DNA of 64,000 bases from an uncultured Gammaproteobacteria bacterium (GCA_964588165.1 CAZPMS010000003.1:10031-74030), one strand, 5' to 3'. Positions 13,927 to 29,537 are shown, counted from the stretch's first letter. Numbers and translations: made by a program. The notes: a model not told the origin generated them from the letters alone.

Positions 13927-14190
13927 AAAAAACACCTAGGCCAATAATGACAGCCTAGGTGCTACGAATAAGCTTACCTTGCAGCTCTGAGCTGGGTGCG
14001 ATACAGTCTCCAGCTAGTATTGTTACTTCTCCCAGTTGGCCTGCTTCTTCTAAAGAAAAAAGGAAGAAAGCTTAAGGTAGTTATTTGATACCAGCCTGGG
14101 CACATCATGTTCGCGTAAGACAGCAGAGGTCAGAAGGTGCTAGCTAGCATTTTGCTTATCCGGTTTTGATCCCTTTGTATAAAAAAACTT
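13927..14190 (-). ncRNA. Putative sRNA of about 264 nt, GC-rich relative to the host, convergent with hicBA
   Basis: On the - strand, TTGACA (complement of 14222-14227), a 17-bp spacer, then TATATT (complement of 14199-14204). It ends at an intrinsic terminator: hairpin cacctaggc/gcctaggtg at 13934-13962 followed by a U-run (plus-strand A-run 13927-13933). There is no convincing ORF (best is 47 aa without an RBS). Confidence 0.4.
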
Positions 14191-14374
14191 AAATACTAAT
14201 ATATAATATATTTAATATTTTGTCAATAGTAAGTAATAGCTCAATCAAAACAAAATTAAAAAAATTAAATAAGAAAAACCGCCGAGTTGTGTAACTAGGC
14301 GGTTTTGTGATACCTCAACACTCATCATTTTTTTCTTCTTAGAGAATCTATTCTAACTGCACTACCGAATCTCT

Positions 14375-14452
14375 CGGAATGATCCATGCCCATGCGGAGC
14401 GATTAAAGATGATGGAACTCCAAAAAAATACAAACATTGTCACGGAAAATAA
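14375..14452 (+). pseudogene. Displaced 3'-terminal fragment of secA (zinc-finger tail [25 protein letters not shown]), an attR-like remnant
   Basis: 17 nt identical to secA 13203-13219 (cggaatgatccatgccc), then synonymous-diverged codons for the same C-terminal peptide, ending in TAA. There is an in-frame stop immediately upstream, so it is not a complete gene. Confidence 0.65.
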
Positions 14453-14631
14453 TTCTTTTTTAAAAAAATCCTGTATCCACCATAATAAAGTGATGAAAAC
14501 AGGATTTAATGATTGTAATTATAGCCAAGTGCCTGAAGGACTAACTGGTCCTTAGGTTGGCTTGTAGCCAGCGATCCAAAAGCCGGAATCCCAATAGTAA
14601 CCGAAGATAATTCTCGCTCTGGGCTTACCGC

Positions 14632-15003
14632 TTAAATTATCGAATCGCGCGTTACACCAGTACCCATCTCTATTCTTCCAGTGGGTCCCGTTGGGGAATT
14701 CCTCGGCGAAAATCGGTTTTGTTCATTAAGCGTAGCTAGTGTAAAAGGATCAACAACACGCAGGCCACGTTCTTCACAATAAATGTCAACTTCTTCGTCA
14801 GTGGTCATACCAGATTTTAGTTCGAACAAGAAAACATCGATTTCCCCGCCACTACCCCTCGGCATTTGTTCAATCAACCTATGGCCAATAATCTCTCGGC
14901 CAGTACCCTCTAGCACATTCAATGAAGTACGGCTACAATCCACACTGACACGACAGACTATCATGTCGCCATGGTCGCTCTGGATAAATTTAAAAGACAT
15001 GGT
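14632..15003 (-). CDS. Hypothetical protein (island cassette gene 1); probable start MSFKF at 15003
   Basis: RBS agaaaggataatacc before the ATG at 15003. The first 17 residues of the tracked ORF are read-through of the shared repeat. GC-rich. A terminator hairpin and U-run lie downstream at 14465-14510, so the gene may be frameshifted or longer. Confidence 0.45.
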   Translation of the reverse strand, partial: TMSFKFIQSDHGDMIVCRVSVDCSRTSLNVLEGTGREIIGHRLIEQMPRGSGGEIDVFLFELKSGMTTDEEVDIYCEERGLRVVDPFTLATLNEQNRFSPRNSPTGPTGRIEMGTGVTRDSII

Positions 15004-15021
15004 ATTATCCTTTCTTGTTGT

Positions 15022-15140
15022 TGAATGAATTGTACGAATAATAAAGCACTGCATCAGATTCCAGCTATATTGTCAATAATCTATATAAAATAAAAAACCA
15101 CCTTAAGCTATGTCGAAAGGCGGTTTTGTAATAACCAAAA
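15022..15140. repeat. Direct repeat copy 1: promoter, 5' UTR and terminator module of the island cassettes
   Basis: About 119 bp, near-identical to 16161-16280. Contains an upstream terminator (aaaaaaccacc...ggcggtttt) and a leftward TTGACA promoter. Confidence 0.8.
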
Positions 15141-15148
15141 TTAGCTAT

Positions 15149-15400
15149 TTAAGTAAACAATAAGATGCCGGCGATTAGTATGCCAATGATTGGGATGCCA
15201 AATAGAATTATGCGTGTACGAAGTTTTTGCCTGGCTATCAATACGCTTCTACCTGCCTTACCTTGCCTCTGGCACTTATAGCATACACCGTCTTTATGAT
15301 GGATTGTATACCATCTTTCGCCACAATGGATGCAATCTTCCATCTCATCCCTTGATCCTTCAGCCAGTTCGGCCATTAAGTCACCTGTATGGTCGCCCAT
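15149..15400 (-). CDS. Small zinc-ribbon protein with a C-terminal TM helix (island cassette gene)
   Basis: CIHCG...CYKCQ double CxxC plus a hydrophobic tail. - strand promoter TTGACA-17-TATTAT (complement of about 15445-15473). Confidence 0.5.
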   Translation of the reverse strand: MGDHTGDLMAELAEGSRDEMEDCIHCGERWYTIHHKDGVCYKCQRQGKAGRSVLIARQKLRTRIILFGIPIIGILIAGILLFT

Positions 15401-15622
15401 AATCTACCTATGTTTGTTGGATTTAAAAAAACGTTAACATCGAATAATAACATAAACAAATAAACTTGTCAATAATCTATTTAAAATTAATTCATTGGAA
15501 AGCTTAAATAATTACGATAACGATTTAAGAATATATAAAATCCCTTAAAAAATTTATCATAAATAAAAGCGTAAATCATGTAGACTTACGCTTGTAATTC
15601 AGAAACTTTCTAAATTTTCTAC

Positions 15623-16126
15623 TCATTGATCCTGATAAAAGCCGATCCAAAATACACCGCCTAGTACAAAAAATAATACGTACAAAACTAGGAAAAGCCA
15701 TTGGTACGGAAAAATAACAATTTTGGTTGGCTTAATAACATGAGAGCTTTCATCAACTAAGACTTCTCGAATCTTCATTAAAGCAATGCCTTGTTCTGAT
15801 TGCGTTACAGTTAATGAATCAATTTTAAAACGTCTTATGATTGTTGATGTGGTTTGTTTGGCTCCCTGAATTTGTGAATACCAAATAGCAACATCATTAC
15901 TAGGTCGAAAGAAGGCAAAAGCAGAGTGACCACTAGTCAAGCCTCTCTCTTCGATTTTCAGAAGAGCATTGTTAAGAAACTCATCAGCGCGCTCTATGCT
16001 CGGAGCCTCAGCTGCTAACTTAAGCCAATCGCCGATATCACGATCAAAGGTGTAGTCAAGAATGCAGTGGTAAACACTAAGGCCCAGAAAGAAAAGAGTA
16101 AAAGCTATGGCAATAAACTGTTTCAT
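15623..16126 (-). CDS. Hypothetical membrane protein (island cassette gene 2); start MKQF at 16126
   Basis: N-terminal and C-terminal TM segments. The upstream residues of the tracked ORF are encoded by the repeat (GTG start). Uses the shared promoter/UTR module. Confidence 0.5.
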   Translation of the reverse strand: MKQFIAIAFTLFFLGLSVYHCILDYTFDRDIGDWLKLAAEAPSIERADEFLNNALLKIEERGLTSGHSAFAFFRPSNDVAIWYSQIQGAKQTTSTIIRRFKIDSLTVTQSEQGIALMKIREVLVDESSHVIKPTKIVIFPYQWLFLVLYVLFFVLGGVFWIGFYQDQ

Positions 16127-16160
16127 CTCTAAATCCTTTCGCCCTATTAAGAGCTTTTCT

Positions 16161-16280
16161 TTGAATGAATTGTACGAATAATAAAGCACTGTATCAGATT
16201 CCAGCTATATTGTCAATAATCTATATAAAATAAAAAACCACCTTAAGCTATGTCGAAAGGCGGTTTTGTAATACCTCAAT
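16161..16280. repeat. Direct repeat copy 2 of the promoter/UTR/terminator module
   Basis: Near-identical to 15022-15140 (1-2 mismatches). A third, partial and diverged copy lies at 16583-16650. Confidence 0.8.
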
Positions 16281-16304
16281 TCATTGCTTTCTCTTATTGG
16301 TGAT

Positions 16305-16577
16305 TTAATTAGAATCTATTCTAACTGCAACACCGAATTTCTCGGAGTGATGCATAATTAGATCACCAACTGCTTTATATGGAACCTTGCCAGCTGCCCA
16401 AATTCCAGGCTTTCCCTCAATGCATGCATGATAGTCAGCTGTTCTTTTTGTGACAACGATAACTATGGTCTTTTCTTTGGGCCGCCCGCTAAGGTATATG
16501 AAGAAAAAAAGTACCCAAGCCAACAAAGCGCCAACCCCGCCAACAATAATGTAGGTTACCAGGTCTTCCATGACCAT
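16305..16577 (-). CDS. Small membrane protein (island cassette gene 3); start MVMEDL at 16577 with a ggag RBS
   Basis: One TM helix. The C-terminal codons are supplied by the element-end/att-like repeat (16311-16355). Confidence 0.4.
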   Translation of the reverse strand: MVMEDLVTYIIVGGVGALLAWVLFFFIYLSGRPKEKTIVIVVTKRTADYHACIEGKPGIWAAGKVPYKAVGDLIMHHSEKFGVAVRIDSN

Positions 16578-16726
16578 CTCCGAAGTTGAATGAATTGTGC
16601 GAATAATAAAGCACAATATCATATTCTAGTCATATTGTCAATAGTAGTACAAAAAAACATTAAACAAAACACCCATACAAAAGCTTGCATTTTTTTAGTA
16701 ATTACTCTAAAATAGTACGCAAGATT

Positions 16727-18427
16727 ATGGCAAATAAAGTAAAAGTAGTTACCAGAAGAAAAATCTGGCTAAGTTTCTTAGCCGTTTTAGTTTTGGCCTT
16801 ATTTTGCGGCTTTGTTGTTTATCCTAACTTACCCCAATCATTCCCGGGTAAGTCTTTTTTTAGCGGATTTTATCCACATTTGGGCTTAGATTTACAAGGC
16901 GGAACCCATTTGGTTTACCAAGCTGATGTTTCTACCATAGAATCCGGTGATCAAGATTCAGCCTTAGAAGGCGTAAGGGATGTTATAGAAAGGCGGGTAA
17001 ATGCTTTTGGAGTTTCTGAACCTTTGGTCCAGACCAAATCCGGCAACCGCTTAATAGTAGAACTGGCCGGTGTCCATGATGTAAATGAAGCTATCAAGCA
17101 AATAGGTGAAACACCCTTGTTGGAATTCAAAGAATTGGATGAAACCATGCCGGAACCTTTAACTGATGAGGAAAAAGCCGAGGCTATTGAATATAATAAA
17201 GGTGTTCTGGATAAAGCTAATGAATTAATATCCAGAATTAATTTAGGTGAAGATTTTGCCACCTTAGCCACTGAATTTTCCGAAGATCCTGGAAACAAAG
17301 ATAACGGAGGTGATTTAGGCTTTGCCAAAAGGACAACTTATGTAGAAGAGTTTGATAAAGCAATTTTTGAAGATTTACGCATAGGCCAAACCACCAGCCA
17401 GCCGGTTAAAACCCAGTTTGGCTATCATATAATTAAAAAGGAAGAAGAAAGGGGAGAGGCTGAAAATTTAGAAGTTAGGGCCAGGCATATTTTACTCACC
17501 ACTAAAAATGAGTTTACCAAAGAAGCTCCTCCGGCTGATTGGAAAAATACCCAGCTTTCCGGAAAAAACCTGCAAAAAGCCCAAGTGGAATTTGATCCAA
17601 ATACCGGCCAGCCAAATGTTGCTTTAGATTTTGATAGTGAGGGACAAAACCTGTTTGCCGAGTTAACCAAAAGAAACCTGCAAAAGCCAATCGCCATATT
17701 TTTGGACGGCAGTGCCATTTCTGTGCCAACAGTACAAGAAGAAATTTCACAAGGCAGGGCTATAATCTCCGGCAATTTTAATATAAATGAAGCCAAGCTT
17801 TTAGTGCAAAGGCTTAACGCCGGTGCCTTGCCGGTTCCTATAGATCTTATCAGCCAGCAAACTGTCGGGCCAACTTTAGGCAAAATTTCTTTACAAAAAA
17901 GTTTAATGGCCGGTTTAATCGGCCTGATTGCCGTTATCTTTTTTATGCTTTTCTATTACCGCTTATTGGGTTTGTTTGCTGTTTTAGCTTTACTAATCTA
18001 CGGCTTAGTTACTTTGGCCATATTTGAGGCGTGGCCCGTAACTTTAACCCTTTCGGGAATTGCCGGTTTTATTCTTTCCATAGGTATGGCTGTTGATGCC
18101 AATGTTTTAATATTTGAAAGAACCAAGGAAGAATTAAAAAACGGCAAACCGCTGGGAACTTCTATAGAAGAAGGGTTTGCCAGGGCTTGGCCTTCTATAA
18201 GGGATTCTAATATTTCCAGCATAATAACCTGTTTAATTTTATTCTGGTTTGGTTCCAGCATTATAAAAGGATTTGCCATAACGCTGGGCGTTGGTATTAT
18301 TATTTCCATGTTTTCCGCCATTACCGTAACCAGGACATTCTTGAGGTTAACCTCTGGCAATTTCTTCTCCAAACACCTTGCTTTATTTGGCATTAAAACA
18401 AAACCAACAGATAAATTTCCTACCTAA
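16727..18427 (+). CDS. secD: Protein-export membrane protein SecD with an embedded parvulin/PpiC-type PPIase-like domain in the periplasmic head
   Basis: SecD TM1, P1 head and C-terminal 6-TM bundle. Residues roughly 150-260 carry GGDLGF..FDKAIF...TQFGYHIIK and ARHILL, the parvulin rotamase signature. The Met at 16727 is preferred over 16685. Confidence 0.85.
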   Translation: MANKVKVVTRRKIWLSFLAVLVLALFCGFVVYPNLPQSFPGKSFFSGFYPHLGLDLQGGTHLVYQADVSTIESGDQDSALEGVRDVIERRVNAFGVSEPLVQTKSGNRLIVELAGVHDVNEAIKQIGETPLLEFKELDETMPEPLTDEEKAEAIEYNKGVLDKANELISRINLGEDFATLATEFSEDPGNKDNGGDLGFAKRTTYVEEFDKAIFEDLRIGQTTSQPVKTQFGYHIIKKEEERGEAENLEVRARHILLTTKNEFTKEAPPADWKNTQLSGKNLQKAQVEFDPNTGQPNVALDFDSEGQNLFAELTKRNLQKPIAIFLDGSAISVPTVQEEISQGRAIISGNFNINEAKLLVQRLNAGALPVPIDLISQQTVGPTLGKISLQKSLMAGLIGLIAVIFFMLFYYRLLGLFAVLALLIYGLVTLAIFEAWPVTLTLSGIAGFILSIGMAVDANVLIFERTKEELKNGKPLGTSIEEGFARAWPSIRDSNISSIITCLILFWFGSSIIKGFAITLGVGIIISMFSAITVTRTFLRLTSGNFFSKHLALFGIKTKPTDKFPT

Positions 18428-18433
18428 CCTCCT

Positions 18434-19501
18434 ATGTTCAAAATAATTCAAAAAAGAAAAATTTGGTTCTCATTCTCCGGTCTTTTAGTATTATTAAGTA
18501 TTTTAGCTTTAATTTTTTGGGGACTTAATTTAGGCATAGATTTTACCGGTGGTAGCCTTTTAGAACTTAAGTTTAATGCCAATAGGCCGGATAACTCCCA
18601 AATTCAAGAAGCTGTTGCCGGTTTAGAATTGCCCAATATTTATATCCAGCCGATTGACGATGACGGAATTTTAGTTAGAACTGTTTCTTTATCCGAAGAA
18701 CAACATCAAGATATTTTAAAAGCAATAGATAAAATCGGTTCTGACGAAACAACCGCTACAGAAGATAATTTACACCCAGAGGCTAAAAATTTGAGTGCTG
18801 AAAATTTCGGCATCACAGGCGAAGGACTGGAAAATCTTAAAATAGAAACTATTGGGTCCGGCGGTGAAATGATTGATTTTAATTTAATAGATGATCAGCC
18901 AACAGCTGGTAATTTTAATAGCTTCGAAGAGCTTAGATTTGATTCTATCGGGCCAATTATCGGCCAAGAGCTTAAACAAAAAGCTATCTACGCCATTATT
19001 ATTGTTTTAATTGCGATTATTTTATACATAGCTTATGCATTTAGAAAAGTTTCCCATCCTGTTGAATCTTGGAAATTCGGCTTATCCGCTATTGTTGCCT
19101 TGGCCCATGATATTATCATAATCACCGGCATCTTTGCGGTTTTAGGCCACTTTTTAAATATCCAGTTAGATTCTTATTTTGTTACCGCCCTTTTAACGGT
19201 TTTAGGTTTTTCGGTCCATGATACCATTGTAACTTTTGATAGGACCAGAGAAAATTTGCGCAGGCACCAAGATAAAACTTTTGAAGATGTAGTTAACTTA
19301 AGCGTTAATGAAACAATCGTCCGTTCCCTCAATACTTCCTTAACAACTATATTTGTTTTGCTGGCCATTATTTTATTTGGCGGTGAAACTATTAAATATT
19401 TTGTTTTAGCTTTAATGATGGGTGCCATAGTTGGAACTTACTCATCAATCTTCCTGGCAAGTCCGCTATTAATGATTTGGTATAAAATAAAAAAATATTA
19501 A
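18434..19501 (+). CDS. secF: Protein-export membrane protein SecF
   Basis: SecF TM topology and conserved C-terminal bundle. Directly follows secD. Confidence 0.9.
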   Translation: MFKIIQKRKIWFSFSGLLVLLSILALIFWGLNLGIDFTGGSLLELKFNANRPDNSQIQEAVAGLELPNIYIQPIDDDGILVRTVSLSEEQHQDILKAIDKIGSDETTATEDNLHPEAKNLSAENFGITGEGLENLKIETIGSGGEMIDFNLIDDQPTAGNFNSFEELRFDSIGPIIGQELKQKAIYAIIIVLIAIILYIAYAFRKVSHPVESWKFGLSAIVALAHDIIIITGIFAVLGHFLNIQLDSYFVTALLTVLGFSVHDTIVTFDRTRENLRRHQDKTFEDVVNLSVNETIVRSLNTSLTTIFVLLAIILFGGETIKYFVLALMMGAIVGTYSSIFLASPLLMIWYKIKKY

Positions 19502-19535
19502 AAAAAGAACCAGGGTTTATTGGACCTTGATTCTT

Positions 19536-19566
19536 ATGAGTAAACTAGGTTTTAAAACCTAGTTTT
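19536..19566 (+). terminator. secF intrinsic terminator
   Basis: aaactaggtttt/aaaacctagttt hairpin followed by a T-run. Confidence 0.6.
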
Positions 19567-20281
19567 TTTGATGTAGGAAAAAAGTAAAAATGAAGATTAT
19601 AGTTGGTTGTGAAAAAGTTGAGATAGAGAAAGATGAAGATAAAAGTATTAATGATCTTGGCAAAAACAGAAACTAAAGGATGGATATAAACGGAAAAGAT
19701 TATAGAGGATAGAATTTCATGAATTTAGATTGGTCAGGGAATTAAGGATAGGAATTTAAGAAAATGATTAATAACAGAAAAATAAGTGGCGAAAAAAGAT
19801 ATAGGCGTCAGAAAAAATAAAGAGATGATTAAAGGAAGTAATGAGAAGTGGAGTAGTGGTTTTAGAAAGTATATCAGAATTAAGGAGAAAAAAGCATTAT
19901 TAGGTAGTATAAGTAGTAAAGTAAATGGATTTCAGGGAAAAGAGGAATAAGAATGAGGTGAGGATTTTTATCTTCGGGGTATAATTTCACAACTGGCTAT
20001 TAAATTTTCAATTTACATTTTTTTGAGTCTTCTTCCAGAAAGAACTAAGGTTGGCTTTTCTATCCCGCAAAACTATGGAGGAACCATAGCGCGGCAAGGG
20101 ATATTTATTGGAGATTAAGACTAAAAATAGTCATAACCTCCACCCCCGCAGGGGACCTAGTAATTTACTTATAGAATATATTTACAAATTAATCAATACT
20201 TGACGAATATAAGCTTTTATGCTATATTTTAAATATTATAAAAAAATCAATGATTTTGAGGGGAATTAACCAATATTTTTT

Positions 20282-21367
20282 ATGGAAGAATCAATTTTAG
20301 ACAAAGTAATAGATAGCCAAAAATCAGCTGTGGTAATGGATTTCAACCCACAGCAAATTTTAAATTCCTTATTTAAACCATTAAACCAAAGGGAGGTTGA
20401 TGTTTTAACTTTAAGGCATGGCCTGGAAGACAATAAAAAAAAGACTTTAGAAGAAATAGGCAACAAATTTAATGTTACTAGAGAAAGAATCAGGCAAATA
20501 GAAAATACCGCCTTAAAAAAAGTTAGAAATAACGAAAACTTAGATGAACTTCTTAGGCCTGTTGAAGTAATTATAAACCAAACCCTAGAGGAGCATGGAG
20601 GAATTATGCAAGAAGATTCTTTAGTTAAAAAAGTTCTCTTGATTCCGGGTGAAAGCAAAGCGAGCTTCTCCTCCACCAAATTTATCCTTTCCCAACTTTT
20701 AAGCGAAAAATTACACTTTATTTGTACTGATGATAATCTTCATAATTGCTGGAAATTGCCAACTACTTCCATAGAAGAAATACAATCTATTATAAATAAA
20801 CTTATTGGCCAAATTGAAAAAGAAAATCAGCCTTTAGCAACCCAAAACATTATCCAACATTTGGAAGAAGATATGGAGGAGCATGTAGCTGAATCACTTT
20901 TAGAAATTAGCAAAAATGTTTCTACCAATCCTTTTAACGAATGGGGGATGGTTAACTGGAATTCCATTTCTTTAAAAAGAATGAGCGATAAAATTTTCTT
21001 AATTCTAAAAAAAGAAGCCAAGCCGCTTCATTTTACCGATATCGCAAAAAAGATTAACCAAGCCGGCTTTGACCATAAAAAAGCCAACCCTGCTACAATC
21101 CATAACGAACTTATTTTGGATAAAAAATATATTTTAATTGGCAGGGGAATTTATGCTCTAGAAGAATGGGGTTACAAACCAGGCGTTGTTGCCGAAGTAA
21201 TTTCGGAAGTTTTAAAAGAAGCCGGCATTCCTCTTTCTAGGGAAGAAATTATAGAAAAGGTTTTAGAAAAAAGAATGGTAAAAAGAAGTACCATTATTTT
21301 GGCGCTTATGAACAAAGATAAGTTTGCAAAAAATGAATCTGGTGAATATTTAATTGCTTCAAATTAA
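20282..21367 (+). CDS. Sigma-70 region-4-type HTH domain protein with a roughly 270-aa C-terminal region of unknown function
   Basis: N-terminal LTLRHGL...KTLEEIGNKFNVTRERIRQIENTALKKVR, the sigma region 4.2 consensus. A TTGACG-17-TATATT promoter lies at about 20199-20227. Confidence 0.55.
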   Translation: MEESILDKVIDSQKSAVVMDFNPQQILNSLFKPLNQREVDVLTLRHGLEDNKKKTLEEIGNKFNVTRERIRQIENTALKKVRNNENLDELLRPVEVIINQTLEEHGGIMQEDSLVKKVLLIPGESKASFSSTKFILSQLLSEKLHFICTDDNLHNCWKLPTTSIEEIQSIINKLIGQIEKENQPLATQNIIQHLEEDMEEHVAESLLEISKNVSTNPFNEWGMVNWNSISLKRMSDKIFLILKKEAKPLHFTDIAKKINQAGFDHKKANPATIHNELILDKKYILIGRGIYALEEWGYKPGVVAEVISEVLKEAGIPLSREEIIEKVLEKRMVKRSTIILALMNKDKFAKNESGEYLIASN

Positions 21368-21412
21368 ACTTTAAATTTTTATTGGCTATATTTGGCCTAA
21401 ACAAAAACAAAA

Positions 21413-22951
21413 ATGGATATTACTATCGATTTAAGCAGATTTTTTGAACTGATTAATGAAGAGCCAGCTAGCCTTTTATGGTTTTTATTTACCCATGGCG
21501 GTTGGCTTGTTTTAATTATCGTAATTTTATCAATCTTCCTTTATCTTCGTTTATATAACCAGCAAAAAAAATATCTAGAGTCTGTAGAACAAACAATCTT
21601 GGCCATAGATATCCCTAAAGATAATGAACAAAGTTTAGTGGCAGCAGAACAAATATTCGCCAGCCTAGCCGGTATAAAACGCAGCGGCACTTTGGTTGAT
21701 AAATACTGGCACGGCAAAACACAGCTTTCTTTTAGTTTGGAAATTATTTCCCTGGAAGGCTATATTCAATTCTTAATCAGAACCCCTGTCCGATTTAAAG
21801 ATTTGGTAGAAGCTGCTATTTATGCCCAATATCCGGAAGCCGAAATTACCGAAGTAGAGGACTATGTTAAATCTATCCCGGATGATGTACATGAATTGGA
21901 TTCAGATTATAAACTTTGGGGTACAGAATTTAGATTGGATAAATTCAGCGCCTATCCTATAAAAACCTACCGAAGTTTTGAACATCCTTTAACTCAAACT
22001 TTTATAGACCCAATGGCTTCTATGCTGGAAGTAATGAGCAAGCTTGGCCCCGGTGAACAACTGGGCCTCCAGTTTGTAATTGCACCGGTAAATAATAAAT
22101 GGAAAGAAAGAGGCTACCAGCTTATAAAAAAATTAATTGGTGAAAAAGTTGATGCTAACAAAAATTTAGGAGATAAATTAGTAGAGTCTTCTGTAGAAGG
22201 TTTGGGAAAATTCAGCGAATCAATTTATAAAATTTGGGGCGATATTGAAGAAAAAAGAGATGATGATTCTGCGCATCCTAATTTATACCAATATTTAACT
22301 CAAAATCAAAAATTTGTGGTAGAAGCCATAGAAAACAAGCTCTCCAAAATTTCTTTTGCTACAACCTTTAGGGTTTATTATTTAGCCAACACTCAGCGCT
22401 ACCAAAGAGGCAAAGGTGTTAACCCAATAATTGGAGCCATTAACCAATTTAATTCATCCGATTTAAACTCATTCAAAAAAAATAAGAGGTTCACAACCGA
22501 TGCCCACTATTTTTTTGTGGATAAAAGAATTTCTAGAGTTCAAAAAAAACTGTTAAAATTATATAAGAAAAGATCCAGGAAAGGAACTTATGAATTTTAT
22601 TTAGGCACCGAAGAGCTGGCTACCTTATATCATTTCCCTATTATAACTGTTAAAGCTCCTTTACTAAAAAGAACGGAATCTAAAAAAGCAGAAGCTCCAA
22701 CTGCATTGCCTTTGGAGCAGCAAAGAGCCAGCGAGCTTTTTAACCCGCCCACTGAAGATATTTTACCCGCAGATGATGAAGAAAAGTTAGGGGAGCCGGA
22801 CCATAAAATTACCGAATCTTTGCCAGGCTATGATTTTGATAATGACTATTTTGAAGAAAAATTTAAAAAAGACGATTCTACAATAAAAACTCCCAGCCAG
22901 GAATTATCAAAAAAGGAGGACCCTCCCTCAAATTTACCAATTAGCCACTAA
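21413..22951 (+). CDS. Hypothetical membrane-anchored protein (N-terminal TM, large soluble domain, acidic C-terminal tail)
   Basis: 512 aa with a single N-terminal TM (WLVLIIVILSIFLYL). Tightly coupled (8-nt gap) to the downstream ATPase. Confidence 0.5.
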   Translation: MDITIDLSRFFELINEEPASLLWFLFTHGGWLVLIIVILSIFLYLRLYNQQKKYLESVEQTILAIDIPKDNEQSLVAAEQIFASLAGIKRSGTLVDKYWHGKTQLSFSLEIISLEGYIQFLIRTPVRFKDLVEAAIYAQYPEAEITEVEDYVKSIPDDVHELDSDYKLWGTEFRLDKFSAYPIKTYRSFEHPLTQTFIDPMASMLEVMSKLGPGEQLGLQFVIAPVNNKWKERGYQLIKKLIGEKVDANKNLGDKLVESSVEGLGKFSESIYKIWGDIEEKRDDDSAHPNLYQYLTQNQKFVVEAIENKLSKISFATTFRVYYLANTQRYQRGKGVNPIIGAINQFNSSDLNSFKKNKRFTTDAHYFFVDKRISRVQKKLLKLYKKRSRKGTYEFYLGTEELATLYHFPIITVKAPLLKRTESKKAEAPTALPLEQQRASELFNPPTEDILPADDEEKLGEPDHKITESLPGYDFDNDYFEEKFKKDDSTIKTPSQELSKKEDPPSNLPISH

Positions 22952-22959
22952 TTAAAATA

Positions 22960-24555
22960 ATGAAAAATGAAATAACAACTTTTGCCAAAACTAACTTCCG
23001 CAATCAGGAAACGAAATTTGGGATAAAAACCGACGACAGGCGTCGGCATATGTATTTGTTAGGCAAAACAGGCATGGGTAAATCAGTTACCTTGGAGAAT
23101 ATGATTATCCAAGATATTAAAAACGGCAAAGGCGTAGCTGTAGTAGATCCCCATGGAGAGCTGGCAGAAAAGGTTATAAAATTTATTCCCAAAGATAGGA
23201 TAAATGATGTTGTTTATATTAACCCGGCGGACTTGGATTTTCCGGTTGCTTTTAATGTTTTAGAACAAGTGGCGCCGGAGCACCGGCATTTGGTTGCCTC
23301 TGGCTTGCTCGGGGTATTTAAGAAAATTTGGGCAGATTCTTGGGGACCTAGATTAGAATATGTTTTAAATAATGCCATTATGGCCCTTTTGGAATACCCA
23401 GGAAGTACGCTTTTAGGAATTATGCGGATGTTAACTGATAAAGTTTTTAGGAAAAAAGTGGTTAACAAAATCAGCGATCCTGTGGTTAAAGCCTTTTGGG
23501 TGGATGAATATTCAAAATATCCAGATAGGTTCCAAGCCGAAGCAATAGCCCCTATCCAAAATAAAGTTGGCAGATTTTTATCCTCTTCTATGATGAGAAA
23601 TATCGTTGGCCAAGTAAAATCTTCTATTGATTTAAGAAAGGTAATGGACGAAAAGAAAATCTTGCTTTTAAACCTTTCTAAAGGCAGAATTGGTGAAGAT
23701 AACTCCGCTCTTTTAGGAGCGATGATTATTACCAAAATTCAGCTGGCAGCCATGAGTAGGGTAGAGATGTCTGAAGATAAACGGGAAGACTTCTACCTTT
23801 ACGTTGATGAATTCCAAAATTTTTCAACCGAAAGTTTCGCTAATATTTTATCTGAAGCAAGAAAATATAGGTTGAATATTATAATGGCGCACCAATATAT
23901 TGAACAGCTAAAAGATGAAACCAGAGCAGCTGTATTTGGCAATGTTGGCACTATTATCTCATTTAGGATTGGGGCAGAAGATGCAGAATTTTTAGCTAAA
24001 GAATTTAACCCCAGATTTGATGAAATTGATCTGGTTAACTTAAGCAAATACCATATTTATTTAAAGCTGATGATAGATGGAGTTTCATCTGAACCTTTTT
24101 CTGCAACTACTTTGCCGCCTGCTACAGAACCGGAAGAATGGGAAGAAAATTTAAAAAAAATAGTTGATGTTTCCAGGGAGAGATATTCTACCAAAAGGCC
24201 TGTTATAGAAGAAAAAATTTCCCGTTGGGCAAACTTGGAAACTGATTCTACCGATGATTCTCCCGATAAAGGCACCAGTAAAAATTACCGTGGCAGCAAT
24301 CCAAGATCAAATAATGATCAAGATCAGCCCAGGGTAGTGGCTACTTGCGATAATTGTGGCAATAAAACCATTTTAAATTTTGAACCTGATTTAAATAAGC
24401 CCATCTACTGCAAGGACTGCTTAAAGAAAAAATATAAAACTCCGGCCAAAAAAGAAGGCCTTGGTGAAAAAACCCAAAAACAAGAATCTATTTCACTTAA
24501 AAATGCTATGGACCAAAAGGTCCAGGATTTTAAAGGCGGCAGGAATAAAAATTAG
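22960..24555 (+). CDS. VirD4/TraG/TrwB-like type IV coupling-protein-family ATPase, soluble, with a C-terminal zinc ribbon
   Basis: Walker A LGKTGMGKS. VDPHGE and DVVYINPAD...FNVLEQ blocks. A DEFQNF...EARKYRLNIIMAHQYIEQL C-terminal AAD-like block. C-terminal CDNCGN...CKDC. No TM segment. Confidence 0.55.
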   Translation: MKNEITTFAKTNFRNQETKFGIKTDDRRRHMYLLGKTGMGKSVTLENMIIQDIKNGKGVAVVDPHGELAEKVIKFIPKDRINDVVYINPADLDFPVAFNVLEQVAPEHRHLVASGLLGVFKKIWADSWGPRLEYVLNNAIMALLEYPGSTLLGIMRMLTDKVFRKKVVNKISDPVVKAFWVDEYSKYPDRFQAEAIAPIQNKVGRFLSSSMMRNIVGQVKSSIDLRKVMDEKKILLLNLSKGRIGEDNSALLGAMIITKIQLAAMSRVEMSEDKREDFYLYVDEFQNFSTESFANILSEARKYRLNIIMAHQYIEQLKDETRAAVFGNVGTIISFRIGAEDAEFLAKEFNPRFDEIDLVNLSKYHIYLKLMIDGVSSEPFSATTLPPATEPEEWEENLKKIVDVSRERYSTKRPVIEEKISRWANLETDSTDDSPDKGTSKNYRGSNPRSNNDQDQPRVVATCDNCGNKTILNFEPDLNKPIYCKDCLKKKYKTPAKKEGLGEKTQKQESISLKNAMDQKVQDFKGGRNKN

Positions 24556-24590: not shown

Positions 24591-25535
24591 ATGGAAAACC
24601 CGAAAACAACCGCAAAAAAAATTAAAGAGCTTAATATACAAGGAGCCCGAGCTATTGCCGTGGCTTCTTTATTATCGCTAAAAACATCAAGACGCGAAGG
24701 CGCTGAGTCGCAAAAGCGCAAAAGCGCAAAAGCTCAAAAACAATTTATTACCTCAATCAAAAAGGATGTTAATTTGCTAATTGATGCACGGCCCACCGAA
24801 CCTTTAGTCCAAAATACTCTTAATTTTGTTTTAACCCAAGTTAAACTTTATAAAAAATCAGATGTTAAAGGTTTAATTAATGTTGTTAAAGACACGGTTG
24901 ATTATCTGCTGGATGTTCTAAAAAATGCCCGCCTGGAAATTATCAAAACAGGGGAGAAGCTGATTAAATCTAAGCAAAACGTTTTTACCCATTGCCATTC
25001 ATCTACAGTTGAAGCAATTTTGATTAATGCCTGGAAAAATAATAAAAAATTTAAAGTTTTTAATACCGAAACCAGGCCACTGTTCCAAGGCAGATTAACG
25101 GCTAAGGCCTTAAGAAAACAAAATATTCCGGTTACTATGGTAGCAGATAGTGCTGCTTCGTTTTTAATTTCAGAAACTTCCGGCAAACAATTAATGATGG
25201 ATAAAATTTTACTGGGAGCAGACGCTGTTTTACCAGATGGATCTGTGATAAATAAAATTGGCAGTTTTGGCATTGCCCAAAGCGCCCATTTAAATAAAGT
25301 TCCGCTTTATGTGGTAACCAACTTGCTTAAATATGATACTGACGGCATTATTCCGATTGAGATACGAGCCGAAGAAGAAGTCTGGAAAAACAAACCTAAA
25401 GGTTTAAAAATTATTAACTTTGCTTTTGATACTATTCCAGCAAAATATATAACAGGTATTATTTGTGAATTCGGCGTTATAAAACCTTCTAAAATAAAAA
25501 CATTAATAAAAACTAACTATCCTTGGTTAAAGTAG
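24591..25535 (+). CDS. Ribose-1,5-bisphosphate isomerase (e2b2 / eIF-2B alpha-beta-delta-like family)
   Basis: eIF-2B-like fold signature GADAVLPDGSVINKIGSFGIA. Directly upstream of the RuBisCO gene. Confidence 0.7.
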   Translation: MENPKTTAKKIKELNIQGARAIAVASLLSLKTSRREGAESQKRKSAKAQKQFITSIKKDVNLLIDARPTEPLVQNTLNFVLTQVKLYKKSDVKGLINVVKDTVDYLLDVLKNARLEIIKTGEKLIKSKQNVFTHCHSSTVEAILINAWKNNKKFKVFNTETRPLFQGRLTAKALRKQNIPVTMVADSAASFLISETSGKQLMMDKILLGADAVLPDGSVINKIGSFGIAQSAHLNKVPLYVVTNLLKYDTDGIIPIEIRAEEEVWKNKPKGLKIINFAFDTIPAKYITGIICEFGVIKPSKIKTLIKTNYPWLK

Positions 25536-25624
25536 CCACTACGAATTACTAATCAATACGAATATACCAATAATTTGTAATTCGTATATTTGTACAAATT
25601 CGTAATTAGTAGTAATTAAAACAT
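25536..25624. repeat. Palindromic TACGAAT/ATTCGTA intergenic element, copy A (between the R15P isomerase and rbcL)
   Basis: actacgaattactaat..tacgaatata...ttcgtatatt...attcgtaattagtagt, nested inverted repeats. Confidence 0.6.
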
Positions 25625-26887
25625 ATGAAAAAAACAAACTATATAAATCTAAAATACAAACCTGATCTTAAAAACGAAATTTTGGCTGAATATTACGTTG
25701 AATCAACTTTACCAATAAAACAGATTGCTGTAGAAGTTGCTAAAGAAAGTTCTATTGGAACTTGGACCAAACTGGCCGCTTTGGAAAGTAAATATTTCAA
25801 CAAACTGGCTCCACAGGTCTATTCAATAGATTCCAGAAAAAAAATCATAAAAATTGCTTACCCGTTGGATTTGTTTGAAATGAATAGTATTCCTCAACTT
25901 TTATCCAGTTTAGCCGGCAATATTTTTAGTATGAAGGTAGTTACTAAATTGAGGCTTTTAGACTTACACTTTCCGGAAAAATATATTAACAGCTACCAAG
26001 GTCCGGCTTTTGGCATTGATGGCATACGGAAAAAAATGGGCATTAAAAAACGACCACTCTTGGGATCAATTATAAAACCTAAAGTTGGTTTAACCTCTAC
26101 CGAACATGCCAACTTAGCTTATACCATTTGGAAAAGTGGAGTGGATGTGGTTAAAGATGATGAAAATTTAACAGACCAGCCATTTAACAGATTTACAGAT
26201 AGAGTAAGAAAGGTTATTAAACTCCGGAAGAAAGTAGAAAAAGAAACAGGCAAAAAAAAGCTTCATGTTTTTAATGTTACCGGCACTTCGGATATGATGT
26301 TAAAACGAGCCAAGTATGTTAAAAAAATGGGCGGTAAATGTGTAATGGTGGATATAGTTTCTACAGGACTTGATAATGTTCAATTTTTAAGAAAATGGAA
26401 TTTAGGTTTAATAATCCACGGCCACAGAGCAGGGCATTCCATGTTTACCCGCGACGAACACCACGGCATGACAATGTTAGTACTGGCTAAACTTGCACGC
26501 TTGGCAGGTATTGATCAATTACATACCGGTACAGTTGTTGGTAAAATGGATGGAGATAAAAAAGAAGTAACCACCATTAATAAATTATTAAAGGAAGACT
26601 GGAAGCATCATAACGCTCTAAAAGATAATTGGTCTAAGTTAAAACCAACCATGCCAATCGCCTCGGGCGGTTTACATCCTGCTTTAGTTGAAAAGATGAT
26701 AAAAATTTTAGGTAATGATGTTATCGTCAATTTTGGTGGGGGCTTACACGGCCATCCAGACGGAGCTGCCGCAGGTGCCAAAGCCTGCTTGGATGCAGTA
26801 ATGGCCACTCAAAAAAAATATACTTTAAAACAATACGCCAACAATCATCCTGAGCTAAAGAAGGCTTTGGAGTATTGGAAAGTCTAA
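25625..26887 (+). CDS. rbcL: RuBisCO large subunit, form II/III type
   Basis: Carbamylation-site block VVKDDENL (KDDE). GGLHP and GGGLHGHP active-site loops. 420 aa with no small subunit nearby. Confidence 0.85.
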   Translation: MKKTNYINLKYKPDLKNEILAEYYVESTLPIKQIAVEVAKESSIGTWTKLAALESKYFNKLAPQVYSIDSRKKIIKIAYPLDLFEMNSIPQLLSSLAGNIFSMKVVTKLRLLDLHFPEKYINSYQGPAFGIDGIRKKMGIKKRPLLGSIIKPKVGLTSTEHANLAYTIWKSGVDVVKDDENLTDQPFNRFTDRVRKVIKLRKKVEKETGKKKLHVFNVTGTSDMMLKRAKYVKKMGGKCVMVDIVSTGLDNVQFLRKWNLGLIIHGHRAGHSMFTRDEHHGMTMLVLAKLARLAGIDQLHTGTVVGKMDGDKKEVTTINKLLKEDWKHHNALKDNWSKLKPTMPIASGGLHPALVEKMIKILGNDVIVNFGGGLHGHPDGAAAGAKACLDAVMATQKKYTLKQYANNHPELKKALEYWKV

Positions 26888-27021
26888 TTTTAAGCTGATT
26901 TTATTGATATAATCAATTAATTCGCATATATAGTGTTATGTGACATGGTGCTTTTATAGCATAATAAAAACCCGCCGTTCGTACTAAACTACTAAGCGGG
27001 TAATAATGAGAGATGCCTGGA

Positions 27022-27201
27022 TCATTTTTCCTCGTATTCAATACAAGCAACGACGGGCCCACCGCGACCAATCTGACCATCTTCAGCAAGAGTCACACGG
27101 GTGACAGTCACCTCAATACCCCTATCCTTACGATTCTGAATGAACCATTTTGTAACCAGCATCTCAATCGTGCTTGCCTGAACTGTTGTTGTGTTTTTCA
27201 C
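27022..27201 (-). CDS. Small hypothetical protein (about 60 aa, GTG start) on a GC-rich insert
   Basis: RBS aggagg plus a 7-nt gap before GTG. Perfect - strand promoter TTGACA (complement of 27267-27272), 17-bp spacer, TATTAT (complement of 27244-27249). Confidence 0.4.
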   Translation of the reverse strand: MKNTTTVQASTIEMLVTKWFIQNRKDRGIEVTVTRVTLAEDGQIGRGGPVVACIEYEEK

Positions 27202-27243
27202 AATCAATCCTCCTGTGTAGGTATTAATATTTTGTAACAAGGA

Positions 27244-27272
27244 ATAATAGCATACAAAAATTATTCTGTCAA
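27244..27272 (-). promoter_or_regulatory. Consensus sigma-70-type promoter for the 27022..27201 ORF
   Basis: TTGACA-17-TATTAT read on the - strand. Confidence 0.5.
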
Positions 27273-27448
27273 TAGTAAGTTAACTTAATTATTCTGTAGT
27301 TAATGCACCACATCACATAACATCCCATATGCGGTTCTGTGTCCTTTCCCTTTCAGCTATAATTAAAAAAATAACATGAAATCAATTTTAGAATCAAAAT
27401 CAGCGTTAATAATAAAATCTTATAAAAAATAAACTAACAAATATATTT

Positions 27449-27871
27449 ATGAAAAATTACCATGAGGTTCCAAATATTTCAGTAGATAAAGCCCTGGAAG
27501 CTGTACAACATGCAGTTAGTATTGGTGCAGAACTTGGAGTTAAAGTATCAGTTTCAGTTGTAGATAAATCAATGAATTTAATTGCTTTTGCCAAAGCTGA
27601 TGGCGCAACTCCGCATAGTACTGATACCAGTAGAAAAAAGGCTAATACAGCTTCTTCTACCAGCAAAGCAACAGGCTGGATGAGTTCTGATATTGCAATT
27701 ACTCTGCCCATGGGAAGCAATAACAGGCTTACCAATGTTAATGGCGGTTCACCACTAATTTTTGACGGTAAGGTAGTCGGAGGCATTGGTGTTGCCGGCG
27801 GAACAGTAGATCAAGATCAAGAAGTAGTATCTAAGGTAATTGAAAAAATAGGTTCAGAGTTACCAAAATAA
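27449..27871 (+). CDS. GlcG/HbpS-like (DUF336) heme-binding family protein
   Basis: 140 aa with GGSPLIFDGKVVGGIGVAGGTVDQDQ, the DUF336/GlcG signature. Confidence 0.65.
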   Translation: MKNYHEVPNISVDKALEAVQHAVSIGAELGVKVSVSVVDKSMNLIAFAKADGATPHSTDTSRKKANTASSTSKATGWMSSDIAITLPMGSNNRLTNVNGGSPLIFDGKVVGGIGVAGGTVDQDQEVVSKVIEKIGSELPK

Positions 27872-29110
27872 ATGAAACAAAATAAATACAGTTTAGCAGT
27901 AATAGGTGGTGGGCCGGCAGGCATGATGGCAGCCGGACACGCAGCAGAAAATGGAGCCAAAGTAATCTTGCTGGAAAAAAATGAAAGTTTAGGTGTAAAA
28001 CTGCAAATAACCGGTAAAGGCAGATGTAACATTACCAATGCCGAAGAAGATTTAAAAAAAATCATTGCCGTCTATGGCAAAAATGGAAGATTTTTATATT
28101 CTGCCTTAAATAAATTTTCTAATAAAGATGTTGTAGATTTTTTTGAAAAAAGGGGAATTAAAACCAAAGTGGAAAGAGGCAATAGAATATTTCCGGTTTC
28201 TAATAATTCTAAAACAGTTATTGATTGTTTAAAAAAGTATTTATTGGATAACGGAGTTTTAATAAAATTCAACCGTCCGGTAGAAAAAGTGGTAACTGAT
28301 GGTAAAAAAATAACAAAAGTTATTTTAAAAAATGGTGATAAAGTGGAAGCAGAAAATTTTGTTATTGCCACTGGCGGAAAGTCATACCCAGGAACCGGTT
28401 CTACAGGCGATGCCTATAAATGGTTAAAGCAAATAGGACATACTATAGTTGAACCAAAGCCAGTTTTAACACCGGTTATTGTAAAAGAGAAAATTGTAAA
28501 AAAGCTTGAAGGCTTAAGTTTAAAAAATGTAGAAGTAAGTTTATTTAATGGTAAAAAGATATGTTCACATTTTGGAGAAGCTTTATTTACCGCTAACGGC
28601 CTAAGCGGGCCAATTATTTTAAACTTAAGTAAAACGATTAGCGAAATTGATGAGAAGAATCTTAAACTGATTATTGACTTTAAACCGGCATTAGACTTCC
28701 CAACTTTAGATAAAAGGATTCAAAAAGATTTTGAAGAGCAAAATAAAAAGCAATTTAAAAACAGTTTGGATAAACTTTTGCCTAAAAAACTGATTCCGGT
28801 TATTATTGAACTTTCCGGTATTGATGAAAATAAAAAGGTAAACGAGGTAACTAAAGAAGAAAGAAAAAAACTAATTAAGTTATTAAAAGAATTTGAGTTG
28901 ACTGTTGATGGCTTAATTGGTTTTGAAAAAGCAATTGTAACGCAGGGCGGGGTAAATTTAAAAGAAGTTGATCCTAAAACCTTAAAGTCTAAACTGATCG
29001 ATAATTTATACTTTGCAGGGGAAGTATTGGATATTAACGGTCCCACCGGCGGTTATAATCTGCAGATAGCCTGGAGTACTGGCTACGCAGTTGGAGAAAA
29101 TAAATTTTAA
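27872..29110 (+). CDS. HI0933/BaiN-like NAD(P)/FAD-dependent flavoprotein
   Basis: N-terminal Rossmann AVIGGGPAGMMAAGHAA. About 410 aa, typical of the aminoacetone-oxidase-like family. Confidence 0.7.
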   Translation: MKQNKYSLAVIGGGPAGMMAAGHAAENGAKVILLEKNESLGVKLQITGKGRCNITNAEEDLKKIIAVYGKNGRFLYSALNKFSNKDVVDFFEKRGIKTKVERGNRIFPVSNNSKTVIDCLKKYLLDNGVLIKFNRPVEKVVTDGKKITKVILKNGDKVEAENFVIATGGKSYPGTGSTGDAYKWLKQIGHTIVEPKPVLTPVIVKEKIVKKLEGLSLKNVEVSLFNGKKICSHFGEALFTANGLSGPIILNLSKTISEIDEKNLKLIIDFKPALDFPTLDKRIQKDFEEQNKKQFKNSLDKLLPKKLIPVIIELSGIDENKKVNEVTKEERKKLIKLLKEFELTVDGLIGFEKAIVTQGGVNLKEVDPKTLKSKLIDNLYFAGEVLDINGPTGGYNLQIAWSTGYAVGENKF

Positions 29111-29166
29111 CAAAAAGAAAACCGGGACAGTTTTGTAACCGTCCCGGAAAAAATCATGAATCATTA

Positions 29167-29358
29167 CTAAAACTTCACACACATGCCAGCTTCATTCTCA
29201 TCATGAGAACATCCAGCACTTCCGGATTGAAAGTGTACACAACCATTGACTTCACAATGACAGATAAATTGCACGTCATCATTAGGTGTGCCAATCTCCT
29301 CGGTACTCTCATTAGTACTTAAAGGATCAGTACTAATAGAATTGTCATGAGCTAACAT
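29167..29358 (-). CDS. Small Cys/His-rich peptide (63 aa) with an acidic N-terminal half
   Basis: RBS caggagg. - strand promoter TTGACG-17-TATAAA. The C-terminal half is FICHCEVNGCVHFQSGSAGCSHDENEAGMCVKF (5 Cys, 4 His). Confidence 0.45.
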   Translation of the reverse strand: MLAHDNSISTDPLSTNESTEEIGTPNDDVQFICHCEVNGCVHFQSGSAGCSHDENEAGMCVKF

Positions 29359-29537
29359 GGTTCCAACCTCCTGAATTGATCTATGAATTTGAATGAAATG
29401 TGCTTTTGCTTAATAAATATTTATATCATAAATAAATAATTTCGTCAATAATAAACATAATTAGAATGCCAGGATGTCAGTTTTATTACTAACCTCCTAA
29501 CCTCCTGACATCCTAATTTCCTAACCTCCTAAAACCT

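Follow-up and report, generated by a model that had tools for sequence, protein, structure and literature searches.

A TrwB-like ATPase and its DUF8128 membrane partner: a putative split translocase encoded among housekeeping genes

The 64,000-nucleotide stretch of DNA considered here (GCA_964588165.1 CAZPMS010000003.1:10031-74030, referred to as the window throughout) is assigned to an uncultured Gammaproteobacteria bacterium; the closest matches of its proteins were found in Patescibacteria, above all in Komeilibacteria, and the window is read here as part of a Patescibacteria chromosome. It encodes, next to each other, a single-pass membrane protein of the family DUF8128 and a soluble P-loop ATPase with intact catalytic motifs. 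From the architecture it is nearly certain that the two are halves of one membrane-anchored P-loop translocase, a member of the VirB4/VirD4 branch within the FtsK-HerA superfamily, because single chains joining both parts exist as paralogues in bacteria of the candidate phyla radiation (CPR) and as relatives in phages. The pair of the window is a split, zinc-ribbon-bearing architectural variant of a barely described family of DUF8128-TrwB-like ATPases within a known superfamily. It sits on the chromosome between housekeeping genes and shows very strong conservation, and the family as a whole is abundant in Patescibacteria.

The ATPase and its DUF8128 partner

Three co-oriented open reading frames (ORFs) follow one another on the plus strand (Table 1), with 45 nt between the first, encoding a helix-turn-helix (HTH) protein, and the DUF8128 gene and 8 nt between the latter and the ATPase gene. 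An earlier reading of the window, made from its sequence alone (the sequence-only reading), had described these ORFs as a three-gene module, and the gene calls and domain searches agreed with it on the coordinates and on the sigma-70 region-4 domain of the HTH protein. Hydropathy likewise confirmed its assignment of one N-terminal transmembrane segment to the second protein and none to the third.

In the ATPase a nucleotide-binding domain with a helical insert (residues ~106-230) is followed by a disordered linker, which leads to the zinc ribbon and a tail. Besides the Walker motifs it contains VDPHGE (residues 62-67), DVVYINPAD (83-91) and ARKYRLNIIMAHQ (300-312); the ATPase motifs and the CxxC...CxxC ribbon were all present as they had been quoted from the sequence. 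Walker A was kept in all 119 split and all 117 fused proteins (see below), and the Walker B block in 118 of the former and all of the latter. The ribbon occurred in 116 of 119 close homologues and in 38 of 51 ATPases from GTDB loci. A CxxC-x17-CxxC domain of this kind binds zinc in small proteins of Methanosarcina mazei (PMC12704099). Split ATPases without the ribbon (those of L006, L007, L009, L015-L018, L023 and other related loci) had a conserved C-terminal KPGQV(I/V)x(F/I) motif, and most members of the family carried a tail motif ISLxxAL, which in the window reads ISLKNAM near residue 510.

Both sequence profiles and the predicted fold support the assignment of the ATPase to the TrwB type. 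Besides the ribbon, Pfam matched DUF87 (E 7e-11), TrwB_AAD_bind (2.5e-10; 40.2 bits, cut-off 20.5), T4SS-DNA_transf (4e-8; 32.9 bits, cut-off 20.1) and TraG-D_C (4e-6; 27.3 bits, cut-off 22). DUF87 was also above its cut-off and scored as well as the coupling-protein models. The TrwB_AAD_bind match spanned profile positions 10-288. Among the sequences of the PDB only TrwB (best, E 1.4e-5) and DotL were matched. When the AlphaFold2 model of the ATPase (predicted local distance difference test, pLDDT, 77.9) was searched with Foldseek, TrwB was the top match (E 1.8e-11, TM-score 0.6 normalised to the target), followed by HerA, DotL, Cag-beta and the C-domain of DndH, and later by the C-terminal domain of VirB4 (2.9e-8). 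The membership of the coupling-protein family that the sequence-only reading had proposed was thus recovered in domain and structure searches alike. Profile comparison with hhalign gave probabilities of 94-95% for TrwB versus 3% for the VirB4 protein TrwK. In the model eight helices make up the all-alpha insert at residues 106-230, between Walker A and Walker B.

The ATPase did not reach the cut-offs of curated equivalogs or of neighbouring families. The scores were 45.8 bits for conju_CD1115 (cut-off 250), 45.1 for SXT_TraD (366), 19.4 for AAA_10 (27.5), 14.8 for the HerA equivalog (970) and 14.5 for FtsK_SpoIIIE (24); this last match covered the P-loop only, and neither a gamma domain nor a multi-helix anchor was found in the ATPase. 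The CedD model gave a weak local match to residues 14-92 (35.3 bits, cut-off 600), and the NCBIfam models of VirB4 scored far under their cut-offs. No membrane segment was detected in the protein, whose maximum 19-residue hydropathy is 1.38. Because there is no hydrophobic segment and Walker A begins as early as residue 35, the chain lacks the membrane domain that classical coupling proteins have. The ATPase has more than 8,000 homologues, the best 120 of which are 61-81% identical to it.

The DUF8128 protein consists of a short N-terminus, one membrane helix, an alpha/beta domain of ~350 amino acids and a disordered tail with short motifs. A Pfam scan of the protein itself gave no match; its homologues carry the newer family PF26449, and a full-text literature search returned no paper mentioning DUF8128. 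There are 3,441 cluster representatives of the family (E<=1e-3, 50% clustering). The membrane helix is directly followed by a basic stretch, YLRLYNQQKKY, and because of these basic residues the positive-inside rule predicts that the large domain is cytoplasmic (N-out, C-in). In the AlphaFold2 model (mean pLDDT 79.5) residues 60-405 form a well-predicted alpha/beta region and residues 413-465 are disordered. In a Foldseek search of the PDB with this model the top nine matches were all TrwK/VirB4 chains from R388 (E 2e-5 to 5e-3); the next matches were unrelated ferredoxin-like folds with E above 8e-3.

Conserved short motifs are LAIDIPKDNEQS, directly behind the membrane helix, and EELATLYHFP, at the close of the DUF8128 domain; two more lie in the tail (Table 1). 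The ending N[LIV]P was present in 64 of 75 DUF8128 ORFs and in none of 117 fused proteins. A pairing of the PPxNLP/NLP tail with the zinc ribbon of the ATPase was considered and ruled out: of 11 ATPases without the ribbon, 10 still have a DUF8128 partner that ends in the NLP tail. The short conserved motifs in the disordered tails (PPxNLP on DUF8128; ISLxxAL and KPGQVIxF on the ATPase) suggest that there are further partners.

Table 1. Features of the region, with positions counted from the first nucleotide of the window
Feature	Position	Strand	Basis
TrwB/VirD4-type soluble P-loop ATPase, 531 aa	22960..24555	+	Pfam, NCBIfam, PDB sequence match, Foldseek, hhalign
Walker A, GKTGMGKS (residues 35-42)	23062..23085	+	G35 to K41 invariant in ATPase alignment A2
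Walker B block, DEFQNF (residues 283-288)	23806..23823	+	invariant in ATPase alignment A2
Zinc ribbon CxxC-x17-CxxC (residues 463-487; zf_Tbcl_2 / TIGR04272)	24346..24420	+	Pfam 7.7e-10, NCBIfam 4.2e-10
Membrane-anchor and N-terminal-domain subunit, DUF8128 (PF26449), 512 aa	21413..22951	+	ORF call; PF26449 on homologues
Single membrane helix (residues 18-50)	21464..21562	+	Kyte-Doolittle 19-residue maximum 2.35; AlphaFold2 helix 18-57
EELATLYHFP, end of DUF8128 domain	22610..22639	+	E401, H407, F408, P409 invariant in alignment A1
Split-form tail motif YDFDNDYFEEKF	22829..22864	+	conserved in alignment A1
C-terminal PPSNLPI (PPxNLP motif)	22922..22942	+	N507 and P509 invariant in alignment A1
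Sigma-70 region-4 and HARE-HTH protein, 361 aa	20282..21367	+	Pfam Sigma70_r4 9e-15, HARE-HTH 1.3e-8
Sigma-70-like promoter, TTGACG-17-TATATT	20200..20228	+	best site in scan, 10/12 matches with TG extension
Three-hairpin structured element	20053..20164	.	fold z-scores, covariation, covariance model
secD (rotamase insert) and secF	16685..19501	+	Pfam; kept upstream neighbours of the block

Synteny, fused paralogues and phage relatives

A scan based on DUF8128, with one genome per species, gave at least 573 loci, of which 80, from named Patescibacteria lineages or from lineages with placeholder names, were kept; the count for the ATPase covers the 70 of them with enough sequence. In 52 of these 70 species-level loci (74%) the ATPase gene directly followed the DUF8128 gene, both being on one strand, with a median gap of 4 nt and a gap of 30 nt or less in 38 of the 52, which confirms the synteny of the pair. 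In one subclade, to which a genome with the name Candidatus Falkowbacteria belongs, the HTH gene is beside the DUF8128 gene and a glycosyltransferase gene takes the place of the ATPase gene. The HTH gene was directly upstream of DUF8128 in 48 of 73 loci at a median distance of 107 nt. Of the proposed three-gene module the tight DUF8128-ATPase pair therefore stood, whereas the HTH gene is more loosely attached. In the same loci the median identity to the protein of the window was 61% for the ATPase, 55% for SecD, 43% for SecF, 40% for the HTH protein and 39% for DUF8128, i.e. the ATPase is better conserved than either Sec protein.

Fused proteins were found by clustering the ORFs that neighbour DUF8128 in the 80 species-representative genomes. 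L070:1560-4130 and L016:51-2609 encode proteins of ~850 amino acids in which a membrane helix, DUF8128 and a TrwB-like ATPase form one chain. With phmmer the DUF8128 part was matched at E 6e-24 and 6e-22 and the ATPase part at E 6e-117 and 4e-128, respectively. The ATPase domain of the fused paralogues begins ~30 residues past the HFP of the EELATLYHFP motif. A database search with one fused protein gave at least 120 fused clusters of 835-905 amino acids, from Kuenen-, Buchanan-, Kerfeld- and Parcubacteria, with PF26449 on all and PF10412 on nearly all of them. In the 117 fused proteins compared the catalytic motifs were always present and the DUF8128 tail motif and the zinc ribbon always absent. 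No fusion was seen among the best 150 DUF8128 representatives.

Fused and split forms coexist in one genome in L016, L070 and L068, which agrees with survey data, where coupling-protein homologues number about two per Patescibacteria genome (PMC12102498). The idea of a coupling-protein-like motor separated from its membrane anchor and working outside conjugation, as the sequence-only reading had it, gains strength from the fused paralogues. They also amend it: that reading had seen a membrane protein with a large domain of unknown function, and the membrane protein is confirmed, but the domain is DUF8128, which is more than an anchor: in this enzyme family it forms the N-terminal domain.

The fused gene was always preceded by a small gene encoding 163-193 amino acids without a Pfam family (L070:1057-1554, L090:7409-7990, L091:7499-7990 and L092:7414-7935), the products of which have a conserved C-terminal motif, FLEQEAKIKADKI. 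A relationship of this small protein to the HTH protein of the window was rejected on comparison. A CorA gene is located upstream of the fused gene, and two of the three loci inspected also have uvrB, dnaX, uvrD and rmuC close by.

The DUF8128-ATPase family is not confined to CPR bacteria, as Bacillus phages carry members. The PHROGs family phrog_5156 (824 positions) matched DUF8128 (1.6e-15), the ATPase (1.1e-63) and a fused protein (1.7e-88). By tblastn homologues were found in 42 phage genomes, including Bacillus phage G (gp156) and many SPO1-like phages, with 22-24% identity over 85-88% of the fused protein. In hhalign comparisons phage G gp156 was matched by the DUF8128 profile at 97.5% (E 7e-12), by the ATPase at 99.9% and by the fused profile at 100%. 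The SP8 protein was matched at 99.6% over 738 columns by the fused-family profile and at just 8.8% by the DUF8128-only profile. Judged by these profiles, SPO1 gp27.4, 0305phi8-36 orf201 and phage G gp156 (phrog_5156) are true homologues across both halves. They differ from the pair in being single chains, in lacking the N-terminal membrane helix, which was absent from both phage proteins examined (phage G gp156 and SP8), and in their position beside relaxase-like HTH and actin-like proteins. In the loci of phage G (L094:4321-8463, gp155-gp156) and SP8 (L093:4836-10346) the fused homologue adjoins genes for another ATPase, an actin-like protein and a relaxase-like HTH protein; gp155 of phage G matched the ATPase in the P-loop alone. 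No annotated type IV secretion gene was found beside the fused homologue in the SP8 locus examined, and a scan of viral metagenome contigs with the fused protein gave nothing. Pathria et al. had described SPO1 gp27.4 and 0305phi8-36 orf201 as VirD4-like coupling ATPases with a non-membrane N-terminal domain of unknown nature; gp27.4 is encoded beside gp27.3, an HTH protein that resembles relaxases, in an operon proposed to serve DNA translocation, which could be deleted from 0305phi8-36 without a growth defect in the laboratory (PMC3357382).

Neighbouring genes and the upstream region

In the HTH protein, Sigma70_r4 was matched at residues 34-83 (region 4 within residues 22-90) and HARE-HTH at residues 237-280 (35.6 bits, Pfam cut-off 25.9). 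The RNA polymerase delta model TIGR04567 remained under its cut-off (37.6 bits, cut-off 42). Sigma region 2 was not found, and all sigma equivalogs scored far under their cut-offs. The protein could serve the pair as adaptor or regulator, or it could be a general transcription protein that conserved gene order has held in place; its gene is a frequent neighbour and no more than a possible member of the unit.

The promoter-like site upstream of the HTH gene is located in the best-conserved intergenic block of an alignment with L087, L089 and L001 and was recovered by blastn in L050, L001 and L002. Farther upstream is a three-hairpin element, which had been taken for a hairpin-rich leader of the module (20040-20160). 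It is indeed structured, folding better than shuffled sequences (z -3.2 on the plus and -5.0 on the minus strand) and showing compensatory changes in hairpin 1 in three relatives. It is probably not part of the module, nor its leader, because the promoter-like site lies between the element and the start codon. A covariance model, searched against 90 sources, matched only the window, L087/L088, L089 and L001, i.e. close relatives. Rfam had no family for the element or the long intergenic region, either in the whole window at gathering thresholds or in 19450-20330 at E<=5. The region between secF and the HTH gene, at the end of which the element is located, is 0.8-1.1 kb long and very poor in C: the C content is 5.5% over 19570-20040, compared with a mean of 18% in the window, and 9-13% in relatives. 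The C-poor stretches of the relatives (L087:6300-7090, L089:3150-3660, L001:4400-5010) show little sequence conservation.

The secF gene was upstream in 33 of 59 loci, and in 54 of 59 at least one of secF and the HTH gene held that place; secA lies further upstream in the window, L002, L087 and L068. SecD (16685-18427) contains a PPIC-type peptidyl-prolyl isomerase (rotamase) domain, residues 172-254, inside its external P1 region, and the same insert was seen in every related locus examined. Between secA and secD the window has an accessory insert (13281-16684) with a HicA toxin gene (13654-13872; Pfam 3e-16), preceded by a DUF7387 ORF of 72 amino acids (13443-13661), and several small minus-strand ORFs without family match; at this position related loci have a small HD-domain gene or nothing.

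Directly 3' of the ATPase gene are adenosine monophosphate (AMP) salvage genes (24591-31034), encoding a ribose-1,5-bisphosphate-isomerase-like protein of the IF-2B family, a RuBisCO-like protein and an AMP-phosphorylase-like protein. Such genes also follow the ATPase in 7 of 59 species loci and in others (L003, L005, L016, L020, L021, L040, L052, L087, L089 and L096). They are followed in the window by fmt, def, tRNA synthetase and glycosyltransferase genes. One class II tRNA synthetase (Asp/Lys/Asn type; 53438-55351) has a C-terminal DUF2000 domain (E 1.6e-18).

The genes of the window, which has a G+C content of ~35%, are housekeeping genes throughout, with secA and a cell-wall/division cluster of mraY, murD, ftsW, murG, murC and murB. 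As the sequence-only reading had stated for the surroundings of the pair, no type IV secretion gene is present among the called ORFs of the 64 kb, nor were relaxase, integrase or mobile-element genes found among them; relaxase and mating-pair-formation genes were also missing from the called genes of the related loci listed. The window contains no second copy of any of the three proteins. VirB6 or VirB8 partners were not found with the pair, nor was a conserved candidate channel found beside it. A search for tRNA and tmRNA genes found none.

Possible functions of the pair

Type IV coupling proteins (TrwB of R388, VirD4, TraD/TraG, DotL and Cag-beta) share with the ATPase the Walker A and B blocks, the helical insert and the TraG-D_C region. 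However, the ATPase chain has no N-terminal membrane helices and bears an added zinc ribbon, and the DUF8128 domain, carried on a separate protein or fused in the paralogues, is absent from coupling proteins. The pair also differs in being a highly conserved part of the chromosome, with no relaxase or mating-pair genes nearby. VirB4 (TrwK), together with VirB3, has the same layout of membrane helix, large N-terminal domain and ATPase, and TrwK was the only significant fold match of DUF8128 in the PDB; on pGO1 the protein TrsD, which resembles the N-terminal part of VirB4, is encoded just upstream of the ATPase TrsE (PMC12102498). The N-terminal regions of VirB4/TrwK, TrsD and TrsE nevertheless have no sequence-level similarity to DUF8128, and the ATPase is closer to TrwB than to TrwK. 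The resemblance between the cytoplasmic domain of DUF8128 and the N-terminal domain of VirB4, seen at the level of predicted fold only, is no more than a good lead.

CedB and CedD of Sulfolobales, which experiments have shown to be needed for the import of DNA, both unite a membrane helix with a domain like the N-terminal one of VirB4 and an ATPase of the HerA/VirB4 type (PMC11868833). Their layout is that of the pair and they too stand outside the classical conjugation system, but the CedD model matched only weakly, no CedA-like channel or Ups pili genes were found near the pair, and the lineages are archaeal versus bacterial. HerA and FtsK/SpoIIIE belong to the same superfamily, as indicated by the DUF87 match and by the second place of HerA among the folds. 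The pair differs from them in that it lacks a NurA partner (no NurA-like neighbour was seen in the window or the related loci looked at), the gamma domain of FtsK and a membrane anchor of several helices, and in that their family models score far under the cut-offs.

What the pair does may be explained as follows. An ancestral single chain, made up of a membrane helix, DUF8128 and a TrwB-like ATPase, would have been split into two polypeptides. DUF8128 would hold the ATPase at the membrane, where the ATPase would form a ring like its relatives TrwB, VirB4 and HerA, and ATP would drive the threading of a polymer through some channel, either at the cytoplasmic membrane or across it; the polymer would most likely be DNA or nucleoprotein. 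The sigma-region-4/HARE-HTH protein might load or select DNA, as TrwA does for TrwB, or might merely regulate transcription. We regard a membrane-anchored split translocase that moves a polymer, most likely DNA, as the rather probable function of the pair. That the substrate would be DNA is roughly an even bet. DNA is favoured because relatives in the superfamily pump DNA, and because of the parallel with Ced, the operon context in the phages, the genes beside the fused paralogue and the DNA-binding-type protein encoded next to the pair; all of this is circumstantial.

Several points weigh against this interpretation. ATPases of the VirD4 family, such as DotL and Cag-beta, also export proteins. 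Among the membrane proteins encoded near the pair SecD and SecF are the most persistent, and secA follows at a greater distance upstream; this would suit a role connected with proteins. The proximity of dnaX, uvrD and the HTH gene may reflect a conserved order of housekeeping genes, not shared function. No nuclease domain was found in the HTH protein, which is unrelated to the relaxase-like gp27.3 of the phages, a relationship that was rejected by hhalign (0.1-0.3%). In about one quarter of the loci the ATPase gene does not adjoin the DUF8128 gene. The link to VirB4 has its own difficulties, as the TM-scores of the DUF8128 model to TrwK/VirB4 are low (0.26-0.36), hhalign comparison of the DUF8128 profile with TrwK, TrsD and TrsE gave no probability above 1.6%, a search of the PDB sequences with this profile gave no match at E<=10, and Pfam scans of 50 DUF8128 members (E<=10) gave no VirB4-related family. 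Finally, a coupling-protein homologue of Ca. Southlakia, possibly a member of the family, was non-essential (PMC12102498).

The homologues of coupling proteins in Patescibacteria have been surveyed by Quinonero-Coronel et al., who counted 5,713 VirD4-type homologues in 2,918 of 3,035 genomes (96%), 148 of them near virB4, and found the Patescibacteria VirB4 clade in fewer genomes (2,407). They considered that the homologues were maybe "exapted" for another function and described no partner, fused form or phage relatives (PMC12102498). The DUF8128 partner or domain, the split and fused forms, the relatives in phages and a degree of conservation exceeding that of both SecD and SecF are what is new here for these orphan homologues. 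It is conceivable that DUF8128 and the TrwB-like ATPase constitute an unrecognised third branch of the VirB4/VirD4 ATPases that works without a type IV secretion apparatus, is common across Patescibacteria and was borrowed by large Bacillus phages. Its cytoplasmic motor would pull DNA across a single membrane, possibly for uptake or the scavenging of nucleic acids, and the sigma-region-4/HARE-HTH protein would be a DNA-loading adaptor. Since a VirB4-like N-terminal domain would be combined with a VirD4-like motor, the branch might be a relic of the split between both families, and a role in scavenging would fit the AMP-salvage genes that follow the ATPase in several lineages. Taken as a whole, this proposal is tentative and rather unlikely to be right in all its parts.

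Alternatively, the pair might be the true coupling protein of a Patescibacteria type IV secretion system, encoded away from virB4, docked by DUF8128 to the membrane complex of the system and delivering its substrates. The ATPase domain is of the right type, coupling-protein genes often lie away from virB4 (PMC12102498), and the type IV secretion cluster of Southlakia has no recognisable coupling protein (PMC10633639). We consider this improbable, as the homologues occur in more genomes than the VirB4 clade and about twice per genome, and as the Southlakia homologue was dispensable while the secretion genes were essential (PMC12102498). Moreover, fused relatives without a transmembrane segment are present in lytic Bacillus phages, where the SP8 locus has no annotated type IV secretion gene, and the extreme conservation of the pair and its housekeeping context are unlike those of accessory secretion genes.

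A second alternative is a membrane-tethered pump resembling FtsK or SftA that acts on the cell's own chromosome, in segregation, in dimer clearance during division or in repair, and moves no DNA across the membrane. Membership in the FtsK-HerA superfamily and near-universal, strong conservation would be expected for such a cell-cycle function; the fused paralogue is beside dnaX, uvrB, uvrD and rmuC, and the window contains the cell-wall/division cluster. The FtsK_SpoIIIE model, however, falls short of its cut-off and the gamma domain is missing, FtsK itself has been reported in Saccharibacteria, and copies in phages are hard to square with segregation of a host chromosome, so that this role seems distinctly improbable.

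There is only an outside chance that the motor acts on proteins or the envelope together with Sec/SecDF or a different export pathway, where it might, for instance, unfold certain substrates or feed them in. The secD-secF and secA genes upstream would suit such a role, as would the presence of the VirD4-family proteins DotL and Cag-beta among the fold matches and the disordered tails with short motifs in both proteins, which recall adaptor-binding coupling proteins. The link with SecDF has, however, been lost in many lineages in which the pair persists, the phage and fused paralogues are near DNA-related genes and not Sec genes, and we know of no Sec accessory factor with this fold. A defence or mobile-element module, e.g. 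a HerA-type anti-phage ATPase, is scarcely credible: PADLOC gave weak matches (mad8, 6e-16; HerA models, 2.5e-11), there are homologues in phages and a HicA toxin gene is found 7 kb upstream, but the module keeps its place between housekeeping genes in many lineages, the identity of the ATPase is 61% where that of SecF is 43%, no nuclease or effector partner and no PADLOC match for DUF8128 was found, and ~96% of Patescibacteria genomes have a coupling-protein homologue.

The translocase reading, in which a split and membrane-anchored motor moves a polymer, bears on the biology of a large group. Patescibacteria account for a large share of bacterial diversity; they are attached to other cells in life and cannot synthesise nucleotides of their own. 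Should the motor move DNA, the pair would be a candidate for DNA uptake, export or segregation in these bacteria and would match, on the bacterial side, the Ced importer of archaea. In any case it is an abundant and clearly defined target for the small number of genetic systems now available in Patescibacteria.

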